Source: an archaeon GW2011_AR10 (GTDB lineage Archaea; Iainarchaeota; Iainarchaeia; Iainarchaeales; GW2011-AR10). Taken from it: 32,000 nt of DNA. A model generated the notes under the pieces. That model did not search any database, was not told where the DNA came from, and saw only the letters and a program-made list of their open reading frames with translations. The stretch is from NCBI GenBank assembly GCA_000830275.1, contig CP010424.1:330001-362000 (forward strand), written 5' to 3'. This document shows, one piece after another, positions 11,549 to 23,189 of this stretch. A program made the translations under genes and the position numbers. Every line of letters begins with the position of its first letter. Positions within the stretch are counted from its first letter, which is position 1.

Positions 11549-11584
11549 CAGAATCCTTTAAATAAAATGAATTCCACTGTTTTT

Positions 11585-11877
11585 AAACCTTTTAGTAAAC
11601 CCAAGCAAAATCATGGATTTTGCGGGCCTCGTAAAACCTTTTAGGAAACCCAAGCAAAATCATAGATTTTGCGGGCCTCGCAAAACCAAAGGTTTTGCAA
11701 GGAGGTTTGCGAAAAATTGCCTTCGGCTAAAACCTTTGGTTTTACAAGGAGGTTTATCAAAACGCAGCTTCGCTGAAACCTTTTAAGAAAAGGTTTATCA
11801 AAACGCAGCTTCGCTGAAACCTTTTAAGAAAAGGTTTATCAAAACGCAGCTTCGCTGGAAACATTGGTTTTTGGTTG
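11585..11877. repeat. Decayed tandem array of seven AAACC-initiated units (49, 49, 47, 46, 41, 42 nt plus a remnant) rich in short palindromes
   Basis: Units 1 and 2 differ at 3 of 49 positions. Units 5 and 6 are identical over 41 nt. Palindromes with 3-nt spacers lie at 11605-11623, 11654-11672, 11680-11698, 11728-11744, 11776-11796 and 11817-11837. Confidence 0.9.
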
Positions 11878-11895
11878 AAAGGGGGAAGAAAGAAA

Positions 11896-15722: not shown

Positions 15723-15793
15723 AAGGGTGTTGAATACTTATTAACTTAATTAGTGCCCCGCATATAGGTGGAGTAAAGGTATTCAACAACCTT
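15723..15793 (+). repeat. Palindromic stop-codon-adjacent repeat family 2, copy B (plus orientation)
   Basis: The core AGGGTGTTGAATACTTATTAACTTAATTAGTGC starts 6 nt after the panE stop. Arms GGTGTTGAATAC (15726-15737) and GTATTCAACAACC (15779-15791) are complementary with one bulge. Confidence 0.8.
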
Positions 15794-15815
15794 TCACGGC
15801 GGGGCATTTGTTTTT
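15755..15815 (+). terminator. Putative terminator: GC stem GCCCCGC/GCGGGGC followed by TTTGTTTTT
   Basis: A 7-bp GC-rich inverted repeat (15755-15761 / 15799-15805) encloses the distal half of the family-2 element. It is followed by an oligo-T tract (15807-15815) downstream of panE. Confidence 0.4.
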
Positions 15816-15890
15816 ATTATTATTTATATCCTTTTCTAAATAGGGCTTGGACTTCTTTTTTTGCTTTTGAACCGTTTTGGGAGGCTTGAA

Positions 15891-19395: not shown

Positions 19396-20409
19396 ATGAT
19401 TATTGTAATGAAGAAGGGTTCCACGCAAAAGGACGTGGACAAGGTGCTCAACTTTTTGGAGAAAAATGGCCTTAGCGGGCATGTTTCAAAGGGAGTAAGG
19501 ATAACTGTTATTGGGGGCATTGGAACAGACACTCCTTTGGTGAAGGAGCGGGTTGAAGAGCTTTCCGAGGTTGAAAAAGTTATTCCTATTCTGAAGCCTT
19601 ACAAGCTTGTCTCAAGAGAGGCACAACCTGAAAACACTGTTATTGATATTGATGGCATTAAAATCGGCGGAAACGAAATTGTGACAATTGCAGGGCCATG
19701 CGCTATTGAAAGCGAAGAACAGTTAATGACAACTGCTGCTTCCCTGAAAAAAGCTGGAGTAAAAATTCTGCGTGCCTCTGCTTACAAGCCGAGGACAAGC
19801 CCTTACGCTTTTCAAGGCATGGAAGAGGATGGCTTAAAGCTTTTGGCCAAAGTAAAGGAAGAGTTTGGCTTGGCGGTTGAAACAGAGGTTATGGACACAA
19901 GGAGGGTTGAGCTTGTCTCAAAGTATGTTGATGTTCTGCGCATTGGTGCAAGGAACATGCAGAACTTTAACCTGTTGAAAGAAGTTGGAAAAGTTGACAA
20001 GCCAATTATTTTGAAGCGCGGCATAAGTGCAACAATTGAAGAGTTTTTGCTTGCTGCAGAGTACATCCTGAAAGAGGGAAACAAGCAGGTAATTTTATGC
20101 GAGCGGGGCATTAGGACCTTTGAAACATCCACAAGGAACACTATTGACATAACTTCTGTGCCGGTTGTCAAGGCCGCATCCCATCTGCCAATAATTGTTG
20201 ACCCAAGCCATGCTGCTGGCAGGAAGGAACTGGTGGGGCCAATAGCAAAGGCAGCTGTTGCAGTTGGAGCTGATGGCTTGCTGATTGAAGTTCACTGTGA
20301 CCCGGAAAACGCTTTATGCGATGGCAAGCAGGCGTTAACTCCTGGAGAGTTTTCCAAACTAATGGTTGATTTGAGGAAAATTGCTTCAGCTATTGGCAGA
20401 AAAATGTGA
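19396..20409 (+). CDS. aroF: 3-deoxy-7-phosphoheptulonate (DAHP) synthase, type I-beta, with N-terminal ferredoxin-like regulatory domain
   Basis: IAGPCAIES...LRASAYKPRTSPYAFQG...LRIGARNMQNF...KRG...DPSHAAG motifs. The roughly 65-aa N-terminal extension resembles the Thermotoga-type regulatory domain. Confidence 0.9.
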   Translation: MIIVMKKGSTQKDVDKVLNFLEKNGLSGHVSKGVRITVIGGIGTDTPLVKERVEELSEVEKVIPILKPYKLVSREAQPENTVIDIDGIKIGGNEIVTIAGPCAIESEEQLMTTAASLKKAGVKILRASAYKPRTSPYAFQGMEEDGLKLLAKVKEEFGLAVETEVMDTRRVELVSKYVDVLRIGARNMQNFNLLKEVGKVDKPIILKRGISATIEEFLLAAEYILKEGNKQVILCERGIRTFETSTRNTIDITSVPVVKAASHLPIIVDPSHAAGRKELVGPIAKAAVAVGADGLLIEVHCDPENALCDGKQALTPGEFSKLMVDLRKIASAIGRKM

Positions 20410-20447
20410 AAACCAACGCTGAGCTCTTCTGCGAGAGCGTGAAATCT

Positions 20448-21071
20448 ATGAAGCTGATACTTGTAAGGCACGGCCAAACAATTTCCAATGCAGAAAAACG
20501 CTATCAGGGCAGGATTGACGCGCCTTTAAGCGAGAAAGGCGAGAGGCAGATAAAGGCGGTTGCAGAAGAACTTAAAAGCGAAAAAATCGATGCAATTTAT
20601 TCAAGCACTATTGGAAGGGCTTTGAAGACTGCAAAAGAGATAGCGAAATTTCATAAGGTTCTAATCGAGGAAAAAAAAGAATTAGGGGAGGTTTCTTATG
20701 GCAAATTTGAAGGGAAAACCATTGCTGAAGTAAAAGCTGCTTTTCCTGGAGAGTACGAGAAGCGGAGGCAAAACACCTACTATCATCGCCCTCCCGGCGG
20801 TGAAACTTTGGTGGAGTTAGAGGAAAGGGTTGCACCGTTAGTAAAAAAAATAATTAGTGACTTTAGTGGAAAAACCGTTGTGGTTGTGGCACACAATAAT
20901 GTGAACAAAATCATCATCAAGCACTTTCTCGGCTACTTGCCTGAAACAGTGTCAGAGTACTTTCAGCCAAATGATTGCATTTACTTTATTCAATGGAAGC
21001 AGGGCAGGGCAGTTTTAACTCACAAATTTCCAGGAAAAAAGGAAAAAAATGGTTTTGTAAAGCTGGAGTGA
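20448..21071 (+). CDS. Histidine phosphatase superfamily protein (dPGM-like)
   Basis: MKLILVRHGQTISN (RHG motif) and a second His in VVVAHNNV. A GTG at 20406 overlapping the DAHPS stop is an alternative start. Substrate unknown. Confidence 0.8.
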   Translation: MKLILVRHGQTISNAEKRYQGRIDAPLSEKGERQIKAVAEELKSEKIDAIYSSTIGRALKTAKEIAKFHKVLIEEKKELGEVSYGKFEGKTIAEVKAAFPGEYEKRRQNTYYHRPPGGETLVELEERVAPLVKKIISDFSGKTVVVVAHNNVNKIIIKHFLGYLPETVSEYFQPNDCIYFIQWKQGRAVLTHKFPGKKEKNGFVKLE

Positions 21072-21117
21072 ATCAAATCCTCTACTTGTTTTCCAACGAT
21101 TTTCCGGCGTACAAAGC

Positions 21118-21125
21118 TTTAAATA
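21118..21125 (+). promoter_or_regulatory. TATA-like box (TTTAAATA) with BRE-like ACAAAG
   Basis: ACAAAGCTTTAAATACTT lies 47 nt after the phosphatase stop. The transcript start would be near 21150. Confidence 0.35.
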
Positions 21126-21222
21126 CTTTATTGGGGGCAATTGTTTAAGTGAGATTGTGAACAGTGAGTGTCTTTGGAACGCGCAGAACTGATTCAAGAA
21201 ATTTGCTTAGTCTCACAAACAC

Positions 21223-21230
21223 TTTAAATT
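21223..21230 (+). promoter_or_regulatory. TATA-like box (TTTAAATT), candidate promoter of the leader/tRNA-Trp/trp unit
   Basis: CAAACACTTTAAATTC. The predicted start is near 21255. This is the last AT-rich promoter-like element before trpE. Confidence 0.4.
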
Positions 21231-21254
21231 CTAATTTTTTCCACTTTTTCTATG

Positions 21255-21491
21255 CAGTTTGTGGTGTTCTAGCTGCCGGGCTGCAAAAAGCTTTAGTAAA
21301 CTGCGGCATCAGTTTAAAGGGTGCGCCATTGAAAACAGTGCACCTTGTAAACGGGGGAATTATTACCGTCCTACCGAAGGTAGGACACGTACAGCTCGTA
21401 AACGGAGCTTTCCGTTTAATGCGAGACCTGAAAGGTCGAGCAAGTGGAATGCAAAGCATTCCACGCCCTGTAAACGGGGGCTTCCGTTTAA
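21255..21491 (+). ncRNA. Unclassified highly structured leader/ncRNA with repeated G-TAAAC(N)G...C(N)GTTTA-A hairpins, directly abutting tRNA-Trp
   Basis: Near-contiguous perfect stems at 21297-21316, 21320-21344, 21368-21386, 21399-21418, 21425-21437, 21444-21464 and 21471-21490. There is no credible ORF: the open frames on both strands come from GC-rich stems. The 5' boundary is inferred from the TATA box only. Confidence 0.4.
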
Positions 21492-21563
21492 GGGGTCGTA
21501 GCATAACTGGCAGTGCGGCCGGCTCCAGACCGGCTGGTTCGGGTTCAACTCCCGCCGACCCCA
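21492..21563 (+). tRNA. tRNA-Trp (anticodon CCA), no intron, CCA not encoded
   Basis: Manual cloverleaf. Acceptor GGGGTCG/CGACCCC is perfect. U8 and A9 are present. D arm is GCAT-AACTGGCA-GTGC with A14, G18, G19 and A21. Anticodon arm is GCCGG-CTCCAGA-CCGGC. Variable region is TGGT. T arm is TCGGG-TTCAACT-CCCGC with one 49:65 mismatch. Discriminator is A73. Confidence 0.9.
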
Positions 21564-21584
21564 CTATTGTTGGAGGGAACTAAT

Positions 21585-23189
21585 TTGAGTCAGGAAAACT
21601 TTGAGGCAGGAAGAATTTATCCCCTCACTAAAACAGCTGATTTCAGCGGTGATGCATTCTACTTTTTTGCAGCCATCTCTGATTACGGGAGAAAAAGGAA
21701 CTGCATTTTTCTTGAGTCAGCTGACGTGATTAGAAAGTACGGTGAGAAAAGCATTGGTGCAACTGAGCCCTGCCTGAAAGTCAGAGGCAGAAAAGAGCTG
21801 TTTGAAATCATTGCACTGAATGAGCTTGGCGAGAGGTTTCTTGCTTTCATCAAGGATGACTTTGGCTTTGCTGATTCTGTAAAGTGCTCAAAAAAAATTA
21901 TTTCCGGGAGGTTAAAGCCTGTAAGAAGGATTGTTTCAGAGGATGAAAGGCTGGAACTGAAAACACATGCTGATGTGCTTAGGGCTGTTGCATTCAAGTT
22001 TAAGCCAACTGAGAAGCCGTTTGTGCCTTACGCAGGCCTTTTTGGCGTCATCAGCTATGACTTCATTGACCAGTTCGAGGATTTGCCTGCAAGCAGGAAG
22101 GATGTCTTAAACGAGCCGGACTATGAGCTTAACTTCTATGACAACCTTTTCCTTTTTGATCATAAGAGAAAAACAGTTACTTTTGTTGCCAACATTCTTG
22201 CGATGAGCAACACAGCGGAGTTCGAGCAGCAGCATGCTGAAAAAATGCTGGAAGAATTTGCTTCAGGGCTGAAAAAGCCCGTGCCAAAGATGAAAAAAGC
22301 CGTGAAGCGAAAATTAAGGCTTTCAACTGACACTTCCAAAAAGGAATTCGTAAAAATTGTAAAAGAATTGAAGGTGCATATTTTGCAGGGGGATGTCTTC
22401 CAGATTGTGCCCAGCAGGACAATTGCAGTTGAATTCAGTGCAGAACCTCTTGACGTTTACAAGAAACTGCGAAACCTTAACCCAAGCCCTTACATGTTTT
22501 ATTTTAACAATTCTGCCGGAATTTTGCTTGGCTCCTCTCCAGAAATGTTTCTGAAGGTAGAGGGAAACGAAGCAAAAAAGGTTGAAATCCGGCCAATTGC
22601 AGGAACTAAGCCACGCGGCTTCAAGGATGGAATAATTGACCCTGACCTTGATTCAAGGTTTGAAGCAGAACTGAAGCTGGATGAGAAGGAGTTGGCAGAG
22701 CACACAATGCTTATTGATCTTGCAAGAAATGATGTTGCAAGGGTTTCAGTGCCTGGCACAAGGCACTGCGACAAGCCTTACCTCATTGAAAAGTACTCGC
22801 ATGTGCAGCACCTTGTAAGCAATGTTTCTGGAGTGATGCGCAATGAATTGGATGCGCTGCATGCTTATCTTGCATCAATGAATATGGGTACTTTGACTGG
22901 TGCACCAAAAGTTGAGGCAATGAAACTGCTTCGCCTGAAAGAGAAAACAAAGAGGGGGTTTTATGGCGGGAGCATTGGCTACTTGACTCCTTCAGGGGAC
23001 TTTGATTCTGCCATTGTCATCAGGAGCATGAGCATTAAGGGCGGCAAGGCCTTTGTCAGGGCTGGCGCAGGAATTGTTTTTGATTCTGTGCCGGAAAAAG
23101 AGTTTGAGGAAACCGAGGGAAAGGCGCGAGCTGCAATTATGGCTCTGGAGCTTGCAAGTGGCGGTAAAAGCGGTGAAGAGAATGACTAA
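21585..23189 (+). CDS. trpE: Anthranilate synthase component I
   Basis: Chorismate-binding core (LRNLNPSPYMFYF, IRPIAGT, LAEHTMLIDLARND, GTLTGAPK, GFYGGSIGY). TTG start at 21585 with a GGAGGG Shine-Dalgarno (21572-21577) 7 nt upstream. The ORF-track start at 21513 lies inside the tRNA. Confidence 0.93.
   Translation: MSQENFEAGRIYPLTKTADFSGDAFYFFAAISDYGRKRNCIFLESADVIRKYGEKSIGATEPCLKVRGRKELFEIIALNELGERFLAFIKDDFGFADSVKCSKKIISGRLKPVRRIVSEDERLELKTHADVLRAVAFKFKPTEKPFVPYAGLFGVISYDFIDQFEDLPASRKDVLNEPDYELNFYDNLFLFDHKRKTVTFVANILAMSNTAEFEQQHAEKMLEEFASGLKKPVPKMKKAVKRKLRLSTDTSKKEFVKIVKELKVHILQGDVFQIVPSRTIAVEFSAEPLDVYKKLRNLNPSPYMFYFNNSAGILLGSSPEMFLKVEGNEAKKVEIRPIAGTKPRGFKDGIIDPDLDSRFEAELKLDEKELAEHTMLIDLARNDVARVSVPGTRHCDKPYLIEKYSHVQHLVSNVSGVMRNELDALHAYLASMNMGTLTGAPKVEAMKLLRLKEKTKRGFYGGSIGYLTPSGDFDSAIVIRSMSIKGGKAFVRAGAGIVFDSVPEKEFEETEGKARAAIMALELASGGKSGEEND

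Follow-up and report, generated by a model that had tools for sequence, protein, structure and literature searches.

The window analysed here, a stretch of 32,000 nucleotides from archaeon GW2011_AR10, an uncultured DPANN archaeon, ends in a cluster of 12 genes arranged trpE-G-D-CF-B-A-aroA-K-B-D-E-C. The first of these, trpE, is directly preceded by a tRNA-Trp gene, and the region 5' of the tRNA carries two promoter-like boxes, a short reading frame with a single Trp codon, a hairpin, oligo-T runs and a structured leader (Table 1). The 12 downstream trp/aro genes had been named in the original prediction, and our gene identities agree. The product of trpE (534 aa) matches profile NF010079 (anthranilate synthase component I) with 502 bits, over the cut-off, and is identical to a deposited archaeon GW2011_AR10 protein; the gene as called on four public contigs gives the same product. 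In public gene calls the leader and the tRNA are covered by a hypothetical protein of 139 aa, which the anatomy presented here corrects. The gene upstream of the leader (20406-21071) encodes a histidine phosphatase and has the same orientation as trpE.

Table 1. Features of the trpE upstream region (positions in the window)
Feature	Position	Strand	Description and basis
P1 promoter	21111-21125	+	BRE-like ACAAAGC and consensus TATA box TTTAAATA; promoter matrix, box enrichment
Hairpin enclosing the leader ORF	21148-21217	+	RNAduplex against shuffles
Leader ORF	21157-21192	+	GTG to TGA, VNSECLWNAQN; conserved motif; TGG at 21175-21177
P2 candidate promoter	21222-21230	+	CTTTAAATT, a near-consensus TATA-like box that repeats the P1 box in direct orientation
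Oligo-T	21235-21249	+	T6 at 21235-21240, T5 at 21245-21249; candidate attenuator, archaeal terminator type
Structured leader	21255-21491	+	about seven hairpins; fold z-score -4.7
tRNA-Trp(CCA)	21492-21563	+	archaeal type; ARAGORN, Rfam RF00005, 11-species alignment
tRNA-trpE spacer	21564-21584	+	21 nt; Shine-Dalgarno GGAGGG at 21572-21577
trpE	21585-23189	+	first gene of the cluster; TTG start; profile match, deposited protein

The tRNA-Trp gene and its linkage to trpE

The original prediction had described a canonical tRNA-Trp(CCA) ending at 21563, and ARAGORN, Rfam and the sequence itself bear out both the end and the stem and loops given for it. ARAGORN calls tRNA-Trp(cca) at 21492-21564, and the gene aligns to the full RF00005 model with 60.4 bits against a gathering score of 29, which places it in the family. 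The acceptor stem GGGGTCG/CGACCCC has seven perfect pairs, starting with G1-C72. The anticodon loop reads CTCCAGA and the T loop TTCAACT, the discriminator A73 is nucleotide 21563, and the CCA end is not encoded. An alignment of 11 species recovers the cloverleaf, with compensatory (double) changes in 9 of the 22 pairs. The tRNA-Trp of one relative carries a canonical intron, which nothing other than a real tRNA gene would need. The tRNA-Trp is thus genuine and under selection. Rfam searches at the gathering score and at E <= 10 (the latter on 20900-21800) returned the tRNA only, with no T-box, no Trp_leader and no other family; the structured leader has no Rfam match. A partial duplicate of the tRNA 5' half at 21318-21350 was also considered but is not significant, since 1089 of 5000 shuffles reach its similarity.

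A tRNA-Trp gene lies directly 5' of trpE in 11 species-level loci, the window and 10 further ones, which belong to one TrpE clade and share 58-73% TrpE identity. The question raised by the original prediction, whether the adjacency is unique to this genome, is thereby answered: a recurrence in 10 further species-level loci is far beyond chance. The block formed by promoter, ORF, tRNA and trpE is kept despite differing left neighbours (His-phosphatase, glycosyltransferase, HATPase or DUF1801). In the window, the sequence agrees with a tRNA ending 21 nt before the trpE TTG and a spacer holding only a Shine-Dalgarno sequence, as had been proposed. The spacer contains no T-run of at least four, and a promoter matrix built from the relatives finds no promoter-like site either there or in the tRNA 3' end (best -9.9 bits). 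With the leave-one-out promoter matrix such a site between tRNA and trpE is absent in 10 of the 11 loci. The short spacer, the lack of an intervening promoter and the kept synteny make it most likely that tRNA-Trp and trpE are co-transcribed, in line with the earlier proposal for the tRNA and the trp genes.

The cluster enzymes are of bacterial type, as illustrated by an AroK-type shikimate kinase and a TrpCF fusion, and the closest non-archaeal/non-DPANN TrpE relatives are from Planctomycetes (about 50% identity). Since tRNA genes are common integration targets, both observations would also suit a relic of horizontal transfer, in which a bacterial-type trp/aro island integrated beside a resident tRNA gene and the adjacency has no function. 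However, the tRNA is internal to the conserved block, flanked by the leader ORF and trpE, rather than at an edge, the chance of hitting the cognate tRNA is about 1 in 45, and neither an integrase nor a repeat of the tRNA 3' end was seen, the 5'-half repeat being the insignificant one mentioned above. A functionless relic is therefore highly improbable.

The structured leader contains the repeat families D1 and D2 and three palindromes of the form GTAAAC-N10-GTTTAA (at 21296, 21398 and 21470), against 0.19 expected and none elsewhere in the 32 kb. The hairpin of the last palindrome includes a CCC (21466-21468) able to pair with tRNA nucleotides G1-G3, and the tRNA precursor in the window, when folded for minimum energy, has no cloverleaf. 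The Shine-Dalgarno sequence of trpE begins only 9 nt after the tRNA 3' end, and the tRNAs of two relatives (L169 and L172) have in common two U.U mismatches in the anticodon stem. These features could be read in favour of the embedded tRNA as a cis-regulator, an idea of the original prediction, acting via TrpRS, RNase P, tRNase Z or refolding against the leader or the Shine-Dalgarno sequence; trpE processing, stability or translation would then follow tRNA-Trp metabolism. However, neither the structured leader nor its acceptor-stem pairing is conserved in relatives, and energy models handle tRNAs poorly, so that the misfolded precursor carries little weight. The tRNAs moreover evolve as ordinary tRNAs, as seen from the compensatory changes and the one intron. 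The spacer measures 21-31 nt in the window and two other loci (L001, L166) but ranges from 21 to about 165 nt over all loci. A mechanism relying on the 21-nt spacing is therefore unlikely, and we consider cis-regulation by the tRNA in general improbable.

A short reading frame with a single Trp codon

The leader ORF of the window begins 31 nt past the end of the P1 TATA box, a distance which, with the start placed by prediction, would leave a 5'UTR of only about 8 nt and a near-leaderless message. ORFs of 9-17 codons with the motif [DE]-x-[LR]-W occur at the same place in 14 loci, and a 15th (L174) has the near-variant D-Y-P-W. The motif is specific to this position: of the only 15 short ORFs that carry it within 280 kb-strand of these loci, 14 are the leader ORFs. 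A start codon, an open frame through the TGG and a stop 2-6 codons further are kept in all 15 loci, and the frame always includes exactly one TGG. Among random TGGs, only 3.9% fall within a mini-ORF of this kind. The distance from the TATA box to the start of the ORF is 23-36 nt (29-36 nt in most loci). Changes within the ORF are synonymous or conservative (TTA/CTA, TGT/TGC, GAT/GAG). No leader peptides were seen before the neighbouring ilvE and fsa/pheA units.

The core of the ORF is also well conserved at the nucleotide level. The Leu codon before the TGG is CTT in 13 of the 13 loci with Leu, while L004 has Arg (CGC) and L174 Pro (CCG), and no GGAGG-type Shine-Dalgarno sequence precedes the ORF. 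This is what an untranslated GATTTACTTTGG-like element might look like, that is a DNA or RNA protein-binding site serving as operator for a Trp-responsive regulator. A binding site would not, however, explain why start, open frame through the TGG and near stop persist in 15 of 15 loci, nor the coding-type substitutions, and the fixed spacing to the TATA box agrees with an mRNA that is leaderless or has a short leader. Bacterial sister operons, moreover, use a translated leader: in Planctomycetes, 30 of 36 loci encode leader peptides of the form MRQINRKNTGNWWWPxG, and one such leader, when folded, ends in a perfect intrinsic terminator, which indicates that this operon family is regulated by leader-peptide attenuation. 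An operator thus appears quite unlikely. The P1 transcript was also examined as a C/D-box sRNA because of its CTGA and ATGATG-like boxes. This was rejected, as the box positions are inconsistent or lie 5' of the inferred start and no guide fits tRNA-Trp.

In four relatives (L004, L081, L006 and L174) the leader ORF is present without the tRNA, so that trp regulation does not appear to depend on the tRNA. The original prediction had seen the regulatory novelty in the tRNA; it was right about the position of the tRNA but overlooked the Trp-codon ORF and the T-run behind the promoter at 21118. It is most likely the leader ORF, rather than the tRNA, that senses Trp. Relatives without a leader ORF (Woesearchaeota-type), and only these, have a divergent ACT-domain gene at the TrpY position, which suggests that leader ORF and divergent ACT-domain regulator are alternative devices.

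Promoters, hairpin and oligo-T runs

The promoter-like boxes that had been placed at 21118 and 21223 were recovered as CTTTAAATA at 21117 and CTTTAAATT at 21222. The P1 box sequence occurs 8 times in the window, where 1.9 copies would be expected. In a 14-site matrix P1 is the top-ranked promoter-like site of the window, and in 10 of the 11 loci with a tRNA its homologue takes first or second rank, the exception being L003 at less than 6 bits. This matrix took in three loci without tRNA and gave higher window scores than the leave-one-out matrix. With the latter P1 scores 20.8 bits and its homologues 13-21 bits, save L003 at 4.9. The P1 transcript would start at about 21148-21150. Scans for sigma-70 promoters and hairpin-T terminators revealed no enrichment, as expected in an archaeon.

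The P2 box reaches 7.8 bits in the leave-one-out matrix (empirical p 0.029). It is a possible basal promoter whose start, predicted at about 21253, would fall just 3' of the T-runs. A comparable site between leader ORF and tRNA is absent in 8 of the 11 loci (leave-one-out matrix, empirical p > 0.1), and a second promoter after the leader ORF was therefore rejected as a general feature. A/T-rich boxes with TTTAAA- or TATAAA-like cores do occur 24-35 nt 3' of the leader stop in most loci, and the L004/L081/L174 group has a strong second TATA immediately 5' of trpE.

These boxes bear on a neutral explanation of the synteny, in which the tRNA-Trp has its own promoter (at 21222 in the window), the trp genes are expressed by read-through of a housekeeping tRNA transcript and the small ORF belongs to a separate short transcript that ends at the T-run and does not influence the genes beyond it. 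With a near-consensus TATA between leader ORF and tRNA and a predicted start just past the T-runs, tRNA and trp expression in the window could be largely independent of the leader. Constitutive expression would indeed be needed for a sole tRNA-Trp gene: if this one is the only copy, tight attenuation would be harmful. Across loci, however, 8 of the 11 boxes do not score as promoters, against 13-21 bits for P1. The leader ORF precedes trpE even where there is no tRNA, and the match between cognate tRNA and operon, kept together with a Trp-codon ORF over deep divergence, is hard to explain by neutrality. We consider the neutral explanation unlikely.

A hairpin encloses the leader ORF. Its 5' arm lies before or at the start codon (core GTGAGA, 21149-21154) and its 3' arm 8-25 nt 3' of the leader stop (core TCTCAC, 21211-21216). 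RNAduplex gives -14.8 kcal/mol for the two arms against -9.5 in shuffles (p 0.034). Pairing between the start region and the region after the stop was found in 10 of the 11 loci, with differing arm sequences. RNAalifold on MAFFT alignments of the leader ORF region and of the region from the T-run to the tRNA gave no consensus structure; the arms are out of register in these alignments, which is why each locus was examined separately by a duplex test with shuffles. No alternative terminator/antiterminator pair was found at the leader, where a single conserved stem encloses the ORF.

The oligo-T runs are conserved in position. A T-run of at least five starts 30-47 nt past the leader stop in 8 of the 11 loci, where 0.47 would be expected; 8 loci were never reached in 5000 shuffles, and other 18-nt windows hold 0-3. 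One locus (L166) has T4 runs only and in another (L115) the T-runs are elsewhere. Depending on the locus, 0 to about 25 nt separate the hairpin's 3' arm from the T-run, so that in most loci the hairpin cannot be a terminator stem of the bacterial type. We know of no hairpin requirement for archaeal termination. A simple footprint model does not place a stalled ribosome on the stem arms themselves.

A candidate attenuator and its relation to known systems

The observations are consistent with 21111-21584 being the leader of one transcription unit in which the leader ORF serves as a Trp-sensing attenuator, a reading towards which we lean on balance. The unit would run from P1 through the near-leaderless Trp ORF, the closing hairpin and the oligo-T to a functional tRNA-Trp and the trp/aro genes. 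Leader ORF translation, termination at the T-run, the sign of the regulation, co-transcription and tRNA processing are all parts of the mechanism that we infer from sequence. The tRNA-Trp would share a transcript with trpE, from which RNase P and tRNase Z would excise it, leaving a trp mRNA with a 21-nt 5'UTR that contains the Shine-Dalgarno sequence. The leader ORF would do here what the trpL leader peptide does in bacteria: the speed at which its UGG is decoded would report the supply of charged tRNA-Trp and set the number of polymerases that pass the T-run, and hence the amounts of tRNA-Trp and of Trp-synthesis enzymes. The sign we favour is the biosynthetic one. A ribosome stalled at the UGG, parked in the loop, would keep the stem between start region and post-stop region open and allow read-through, and a free leader would fold and the polymerase terminate at the T-run. 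In mechanical terms the opposite sign is equally possible, with a ribosome at the stop codon pushing the polymerase past the T-run. The near-consensus TATA at 21222 may add a basal, unattenuated supply in GW2011_AR10.

Several traits are shared with bacterial trpL. The locus has a short Trp-codon ORF just after the promoter and before trpE; this ORF sits within RNA structure, and a U-rich putative termination signal comes after it; the T-runs lie downstream of the ORF, and their terminating role is predicted. The TrpE family is homologous, with Planctomycetes as sister clade. The differences are also clear. The promoter is an archaeal BRE/TATA promoter and the ORF near-leaderless; the oligo-T stands at a variable distance from the stem, unlike in a hairpin-U terminator; a terminator/antiterminator pair cannot be recognised; leader and trpE are separated by a tRNA gene; and the Rfam Trp_leader model finds no match (E <= 10, 20900-21800). 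Bacterial trp leaders have two or three Trp codons in tandem, while here one Trp codon is set in [DE]-x-[LR]-W, and by this analogy the single codon counts against a trpL-type attenuator. Through the conserved context of the Trp codon, the nascent peptide may itself contribute to the sensing. In this respect the leader ORF resembles TnaC, likewise a very short leader peptide, whose single conserved Trp stands in a conserved residue context before a termination signal. However TnaC depends on the fixed geometry W12-D16-P24-stop and regulates a catabolic operon via Rho, whereas the distance from Trp to stop is 2-6 codons here and no Pro is conserved.

To our knowledge, the TrpY-regulated trp operon of Methanothermobacter thermautotrophicus is the sole well-studied case of archaeal trp regulation. 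It shares with the present locus an archaeal operon starting with trpE and a tryptophan-related control, here a candidate one. Unlike in that system, there is no divergent regulator gene in the window, the upstream gene being the co-oriented histidine phosphatase, and the candidate sensor is a translated leader rather than a DNA-binding repressor. The T-box riboswitches of Firmicutes trp genes also couple the status of tRNA-Trp to trp transcription by means of a leader RNA, but they bind the tRNA in trans via a specifier loop, while here it is encoded in cis and Rfam detects no T-box at the locus.

Co-transcription of tRNAs with protein genes is known from the E. coli thrU-tyrU-glyT-thrT-tufB operon and from the tRNA punctuation of mitochondria. 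An archaeal precedent for a tRNA in a leader comes from Thermococcus kodakarensis, where the 159-nt 5'UTR of TK0306 contains a tRNA-Lys (PMC4247193). As in these three cases, the tRNA lies 5' of the ORF with no intervening promoter, and its processing would set the 5' end of the mRNA. The present tRNA differs in being cognate to the downstream pathway and in following a leader ORF that contains the codon it decodes. Literature searches found no published description of a tRNA-Trp within a trp leader, in agreement with the original prediction, which knew of no archaeal trp arrangement of this kind.

More tentatively, with a probability that we put somewhat below even, the locus may represent a ribosome-mediated transcription attenuator in Archaea that derives from bacterial trpL and has the cognate tRNA nested in the leader it regulates. 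Following transfer of the operon, the bacterial attenuator would have been inherited or adapted and remade from archaeal parts, with a BRE/TATA promoter, an ORF that is nearly leaderless and termination at oligo-T; the reading of a single UGG would then exert feedback on the supplies of tRNA-Trp and of tryptophan alike. We know of no bacterial-style tryptophan-sensing attenuator documented so far in archaea. Transcription and translation are coupled in archaea, and this locus family offers a concrete and mutable test case of about 100 nt for asking whether archaeal coupling serves regulation as it does in bacteria, with a natural bacterial comparison within the same operon family. It also bears on the survival of bacterial regulatory RNA devices after transfer into archaea. 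For the cell, an amino-acid operon with its own cognate tRNA gene in the leader is a design that would allow tRNA and amino acid to be balanced together.

tRNA-Trp, trpE and their promoter

The only tRNA called by ARAGORN in the 32-kb window is tRNA-Trp(cca), and the Rfam tRNA model matches it end to end, scoring 60.4 bits where the gathering threshold is 29. It has an acceptor stem of seven perfect base pairs (GGGGTCG/CGACCCC), the anticodon loop CTCCAGA, the T loop TTCAACT and a discriminator A, and CCA is not encoded. G1-C72 and A73 without CCA are the archaeal pattern. The canonical tRNA of the original prediction is thus borne out in its stem, loops and discriminator. So are the TTG start of trpE and its GGAGGG motif, eight bases upstream: the 534-aa product scores above the NCBIfam cut-off for anthranilate synthase component I and is identical to the deposited protein of archaeon GW2011_AR10 as well as to public gene calls. 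The 21-nt spacer, predicted to lack both promoter and oligo-T, contains no run of at least four T and no promoter-like site (best matrix score -9.9 bits). The 12 predicted downstream trp/aro genes are all present: trpE, then trpG, D, CF, B and A, and aroA, K, B, D, E and C. Upstream of the tRNA, the same strand carries ilvE, panE, fsa/tal, pheA, a split transketolase, DAHP synthase and a histidine phosphatase ending at 21071.

A 139-aa hypothetical protein, spanning the leader and overlapping the tRNA, is called on three ENA contigs and is absent from the calls on one NCBI contig examined (L163). Because it matches no family and the length of the leader varies among relatives, this call is almost certainly spurious.

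Promoters were scored with a 17-nt matrix built from the sites of P1 (the BRE/TATA promoter upstream of the leader), omitting the site of the locus being scored. By this measure P1 reaches 13-21 bits (4.9 in L003). With a 14-site matrix it is the best or second-best promoter-like site of its locus in 10 of the 11 loci that carry the tRNA. Most loci also have an A/T-rich box 24-35 nt past the leader stop; in 8/11 loci it is not promoter-like (leave-one-out matrix, empirical p > 0.1). The window is an exception: its box is a near-copy of P1 (7.8 bits, p 0.029), and a second, basal promoter is possible in AR10, the archaeon under study. The nearest promoter-like boxes had been placed at 21118 and 21223; TATA-like boxes were found at 21118 and 21222. 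Since the second box is weak in so many loci, and the only good sites between tRNA and trpE are those of L169 (9.2 bits), P1 is the one consistent predicted promoter for the leader ORF, tRNA and trpE.

Features of the window and of related loci (positions in the window unless a locus is named)
Feature	Position	Strand	Description
P1 promoter	21111-21125		TATA box TTTAAATA at 21118
Leader ORF	21157-21192	+	GTG AAC AGT GAG TGT CTT TGG AAC GCG CAG AAC TGA, VNSECLWNAQN
139-aa call	21164-21583	+	
P2, TATA-like box	21222		CTTTAAATT
T-run	21235-21240; 21245-21249		T6; T5
Hairpin array	21255-21491		237 nt between T-runs and tRNA; about seven stable hairpins
GTAAAC-N10-GTTTAA palindromes	21296, 21398, 21470		partial fourth at 21347
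tRNA-Trp(cca)	21492-21564	+	Rfam match 21492-21563; discriminator A 21563
GGAGGG	21572-21577		
trpE	from 21585	+	TTG start
Repeated palindrome GCAAAATCYATGATTTTGC	11605-11687	-	intergenic region 11549-11895
Hairpin 3' of panE	15753-15822		
tRNA-Trp with intron	L115 2709-2845		contig Ga0315291_10000003 (533 kb)
tRNA-Trp with U.U mismatches	L169 2263-2335; L172 2324-2396		
Post-tRNA elements	L003 5322-5485; L167 2418-2500; L169 2336-2500; L170 2408-2500; L172 2398-2500		
tRNA-less leaders	L004 5743-5961; L081 2743-2937; L174 2281-2500		
Possible variant leader ORF	L005 5747-5785		MPMDWKHFVQNL
Leader and terminator	L039 5773-5826		
Divergent gene	L008 4332-4997	-	221 aa

A leader ORF with a single Trp codon

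The TATA box of P1 is preceded by ACAAAGC and followed, 31 nt later, by a leader ORF that the original prediction missed. The same arrangement is found in all tRNA-bearing loci and in three tRNA-less ones. The peptides of the relatives are MNSGDLLWLH, MQGDSLWLQ, MARRDLLWSRFGFE, MQRDLLWLPPRAF, MKGDLLWFL, MARRDLLWSNFQ, MVRRDLLWLFSK, VKHTKSECLWHK, MVRRDLLWQQSK, MARRDLLWIQKF, MKSDCRWQG, MISDCLWRG, MDSERLWQRKH and, in L174, MKSDYPWHGKRKI. Each has exactly one Trp codon, and all save that of L174 share [DE]-x-[LR]-W. Measured from the TATA box end, the ORF starts after 23-36 nt (29-36 for the majority), so the mRNA would be leaderless or have a 5'UTR no longer than about 12 nt. Both strands of 14 loci (280 kb-strand) contain 15 short ORFs with the motif, of which 14 are leader ORFs, a count to be read with the motif defined post hoc, after inspection of the data, and the loci related by descent. 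Such a mini-ORF configuration surrounds only 3.9% of random TGG triplets. The codon substitutions between loci are either synonymous or conservative (TTA/CTA Leu, TGT/TGC Cys, GAT/GAG Asp/Glu). Motif rarity, the low TGG background and these changes together argue that the leader ORF is real.

It is retained in both major DPANN TrpE clades. It also occurs without the tRNA in L004, L081, L174 and L006, so that the tRNA was most likely inserted once into a pre-existing leader. L004, L081 and L174 form a second DPANN group (MKSDCRWQG, MISDCLWRG and the L174 peptide, respectively) with conserved blocks 3' of the ORF (AGAGTTyTAT..AAAAGCCA), as well as a second, strong TATA box, TTTATATAAT, about 25 nt upstream of trpE. 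L175 keeps this second promoter; a Trp ORF was not seen there. The possible variant ORF of L005, 33 nt after a TTAAATAC box, includes Trp without the [DE]-x-[LR]-W spacing, and an out-of-frame CTTTGG lies just upstream.

Conservation of the tRNA, T-run and hairpin

TrpE relatives were drawn from genome representatives, metagenome contigs and the contigs of the closest proteins in a 5.8-billion-protein search. Ten further species-level loci (L001, L002, L003, L115, L166, L167, L169, L170, L172 and L173) carry tRNA-Trp directly upstream of trpE, and the predicted adjacency is thus not unique to this genome. In L115 the gene is interrupted at the canonical 37/38 position by an intron of ~64 nt; ARAGORN made no call without its intron option and called tRNA-Gly(ccc) with introns allowed, the Trp anticodon and intron being read directly from the sequence. 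Aligned, the eleven tRNAs form a cloverleaf in which 9/22 pairs show compensatory changes. Those of L169 and L172 have in common two anticodon-stem U.U mismatches (GTTGG/CCTTC), a trait that is unusual in functional tRNAs and that both species retain. In a neighbour-joining TrpE tree the tRNA-bearing loci form one clade (pairwise identity 58-73%, median 64%) within which the tRNA-less L006 is nested. The left-hand neighbours vary (histidine phosphatase in several loci; glycosyltransferase, HATPase or DUF1801 in others), so that the conserved block begins at P1. The tRNA-trpE spacer measures 21 nt in the window, 26 nt in L001, 31 nt in L166 and 61 to ~165 nt elsewhere: close spacing is not the conserved trait.

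In a subclade (L003, L167, L169, L170, L172), ACCTTTTTCTTTCTC immediately follows the tRNA and pairs with GAGAAAGGAAAAAG further downstream, before 2-3 repeats of GCTKTACCAAAAAGAAAGAG; none of these elements is found in the window. The TGTAC core recalls the TGTACA boxes bound by TrpY.

A run of at least five T begins 30-47 nt past the leader stop in 8/11 loci. Shuffled leaders give a mean of 0.47 loci (0/5000 shuffles reach 8), and neighbouring 18-nt windows contain T-runs in 0-3 loci. Oligo-T is an archaeal termination signal (PMC8716108, PMC7515710). The region around the leader start (-10 to +13 nt) pairs with that 3-42 nt past the stop in 10/11 loci, which places the ORF inside a hairpin. 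The arms are GUGAGA/UCUCAC in the window and GUGGAAGC/GCUUCCGC, GCAAGGC/GCCUUGC, GUGGGACUA/UAGUCCUAU, CGUGAAGC/GCUUCGCG and AUGGCCAG/CUAGCCAU in other lineages. Per-locus shuffle p-values range from 0.004 to 0.18, L115 failing; combined by hand with Fisher's method, relatedness ignored, they give roughly 1e-5. RNAalifold on a MAFFT alignment of the leader region found no consensus structure because MAFFT leaves the arms out of register, and the pairing is a per-locus result, not formal covariation. As the 3' arm lies 0-25 nt from the T-run, the structure is in most loci no hairpin-U terminator of the bacterial kind.

The hairpin array (fold z-score -4.7) was not found in relatives and is specific to the window's species; in strain variant L162, 8 substitutions cluster at 21354-21394. 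Its palindromes occur nowhere else in the window (0.19 expected), and the last can pair CCC 21466-21468 with tRNA G1-G3. Their start-to-start spacings (102 and 72 bp) would suit protein sites on one DNA face, or RNA hairpins, and the array may accordingly consist of operators or of structured RNA. Elsewhere, GCAAAATCYATGATTTTGC occurs twice, 49 nt apart, beside a TTTAAATA box at 11557. A long GC-rich hairpin 3' of panE (GTGCCCCGC..GCGGGGCAT, then TTGTTTTTATT), missed by the pattern scan because of its long loop, is a terminator-like hairpin-plus-T-run in an archaeal genome.

Origin of the operon and proposed mechanism

A 94%-identical TrpE labelled Candidatus Diapherotrites assigns the host to the DPANN archaea; contigs from several samples carry the locus, and their intergenic regions are virtually the same. 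TTTAAATA is over-represented in the window (8 against 1.9 expected) and pattern scans gave no enrichment of sigma-70 promoters or hairpin-T terminators, a combination that fits archaeal transcription signals. The pathway enzymes are bacterial-type (TrpCF fusion, AroK, AroB) and the closest TrpE outside DPANN is that of Planctomycetes (~50% identity). A MRQINRKNTGNWWWPxG-type leader peptide lies 130-320 nt upstream of trpE in 30/36 of the Planctomycete loci with the closest bacterial TrpE (L009-L039, L086-L096), and in L039, the sole one folded, a perfect intrinsic terminator, GCAGCCUGUCGGAGACGGCAGGCUGCUUUUUUU, follows it. These features indicate that in bacteria this operon family is under classical trp attenuation control.

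Woesearchaeota-type trp loci (L008, L072, L082, L084), DPANN relatives with neither leader ORF nor tRNA, carry a divergent gene upstream instead. L171 too has a divergent upstream gene. That of L008, the only one scanned, encodes a protein with a weak C-terminal ACT domain. This layout is TrpY-like, the TrpY arrangement being that of Methanothermobacter. The window element matches neither the Rfam Trp_leader nor the T-box model, and its leader lacks the TnaC geometry. According to a 2021 paper, no archaeal example of transcription attenuation or antitermination was known (PMC8448881). The original prediction was aware of no comparable archaeal arrangement; likewise, our open-access literature search found neither an archaeal trp leader peptide nor a tRNA-Trp/trpE linkage. 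A tRNA inside an archaeal 5'UTR has a precedent in tRNA-Lys before TK0306 (PMC4247193). We rate the element as a putative leader-peptide attenuator that has been rebuilt with archaeal signals and carries the cognate tRNA inside it.

Starting from the established anatomy, conservation and statistics of the leader, we infer that P1 would transcribe the leader ORF, tRNA and trp/aro genes as one unit, from which RNase P and tRNase Z would release the tRNA. Translation of the leader ORF would report charged tRNA-Trp through ribosome dwell time at the single UGG, and this would set the fraction of polymerases passing the T-run. Stalling leading to read-through is favoured, as this is how a biosynthetic operon should respond and how the bacterial homologues work. 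With a ribosome inside the loop, the enclosing stem should stay open; a vacated leader would fold, block re-initiation and leave the RNA upstream of the T-run free of ribosomes. In a simple footprint model the stalled ribosome does not cover the stem arms. The sign could be the reverse, a ribosome at the stop codon pushing polymerase through the T-run, since it would sit directly behind a polymerase at the T-run ~30-45 nt downstream. With the favoured sign, stalling leading to read-through, and the tRNA nested behind the sensor, a shortage of charged tRNA-Trp would increase tRNA-Trp and Trp synthesis alike. Should the genome have no other tRNA-Trp gene, a basal level would have to come from leaky read-through or, in AR10, from P2.
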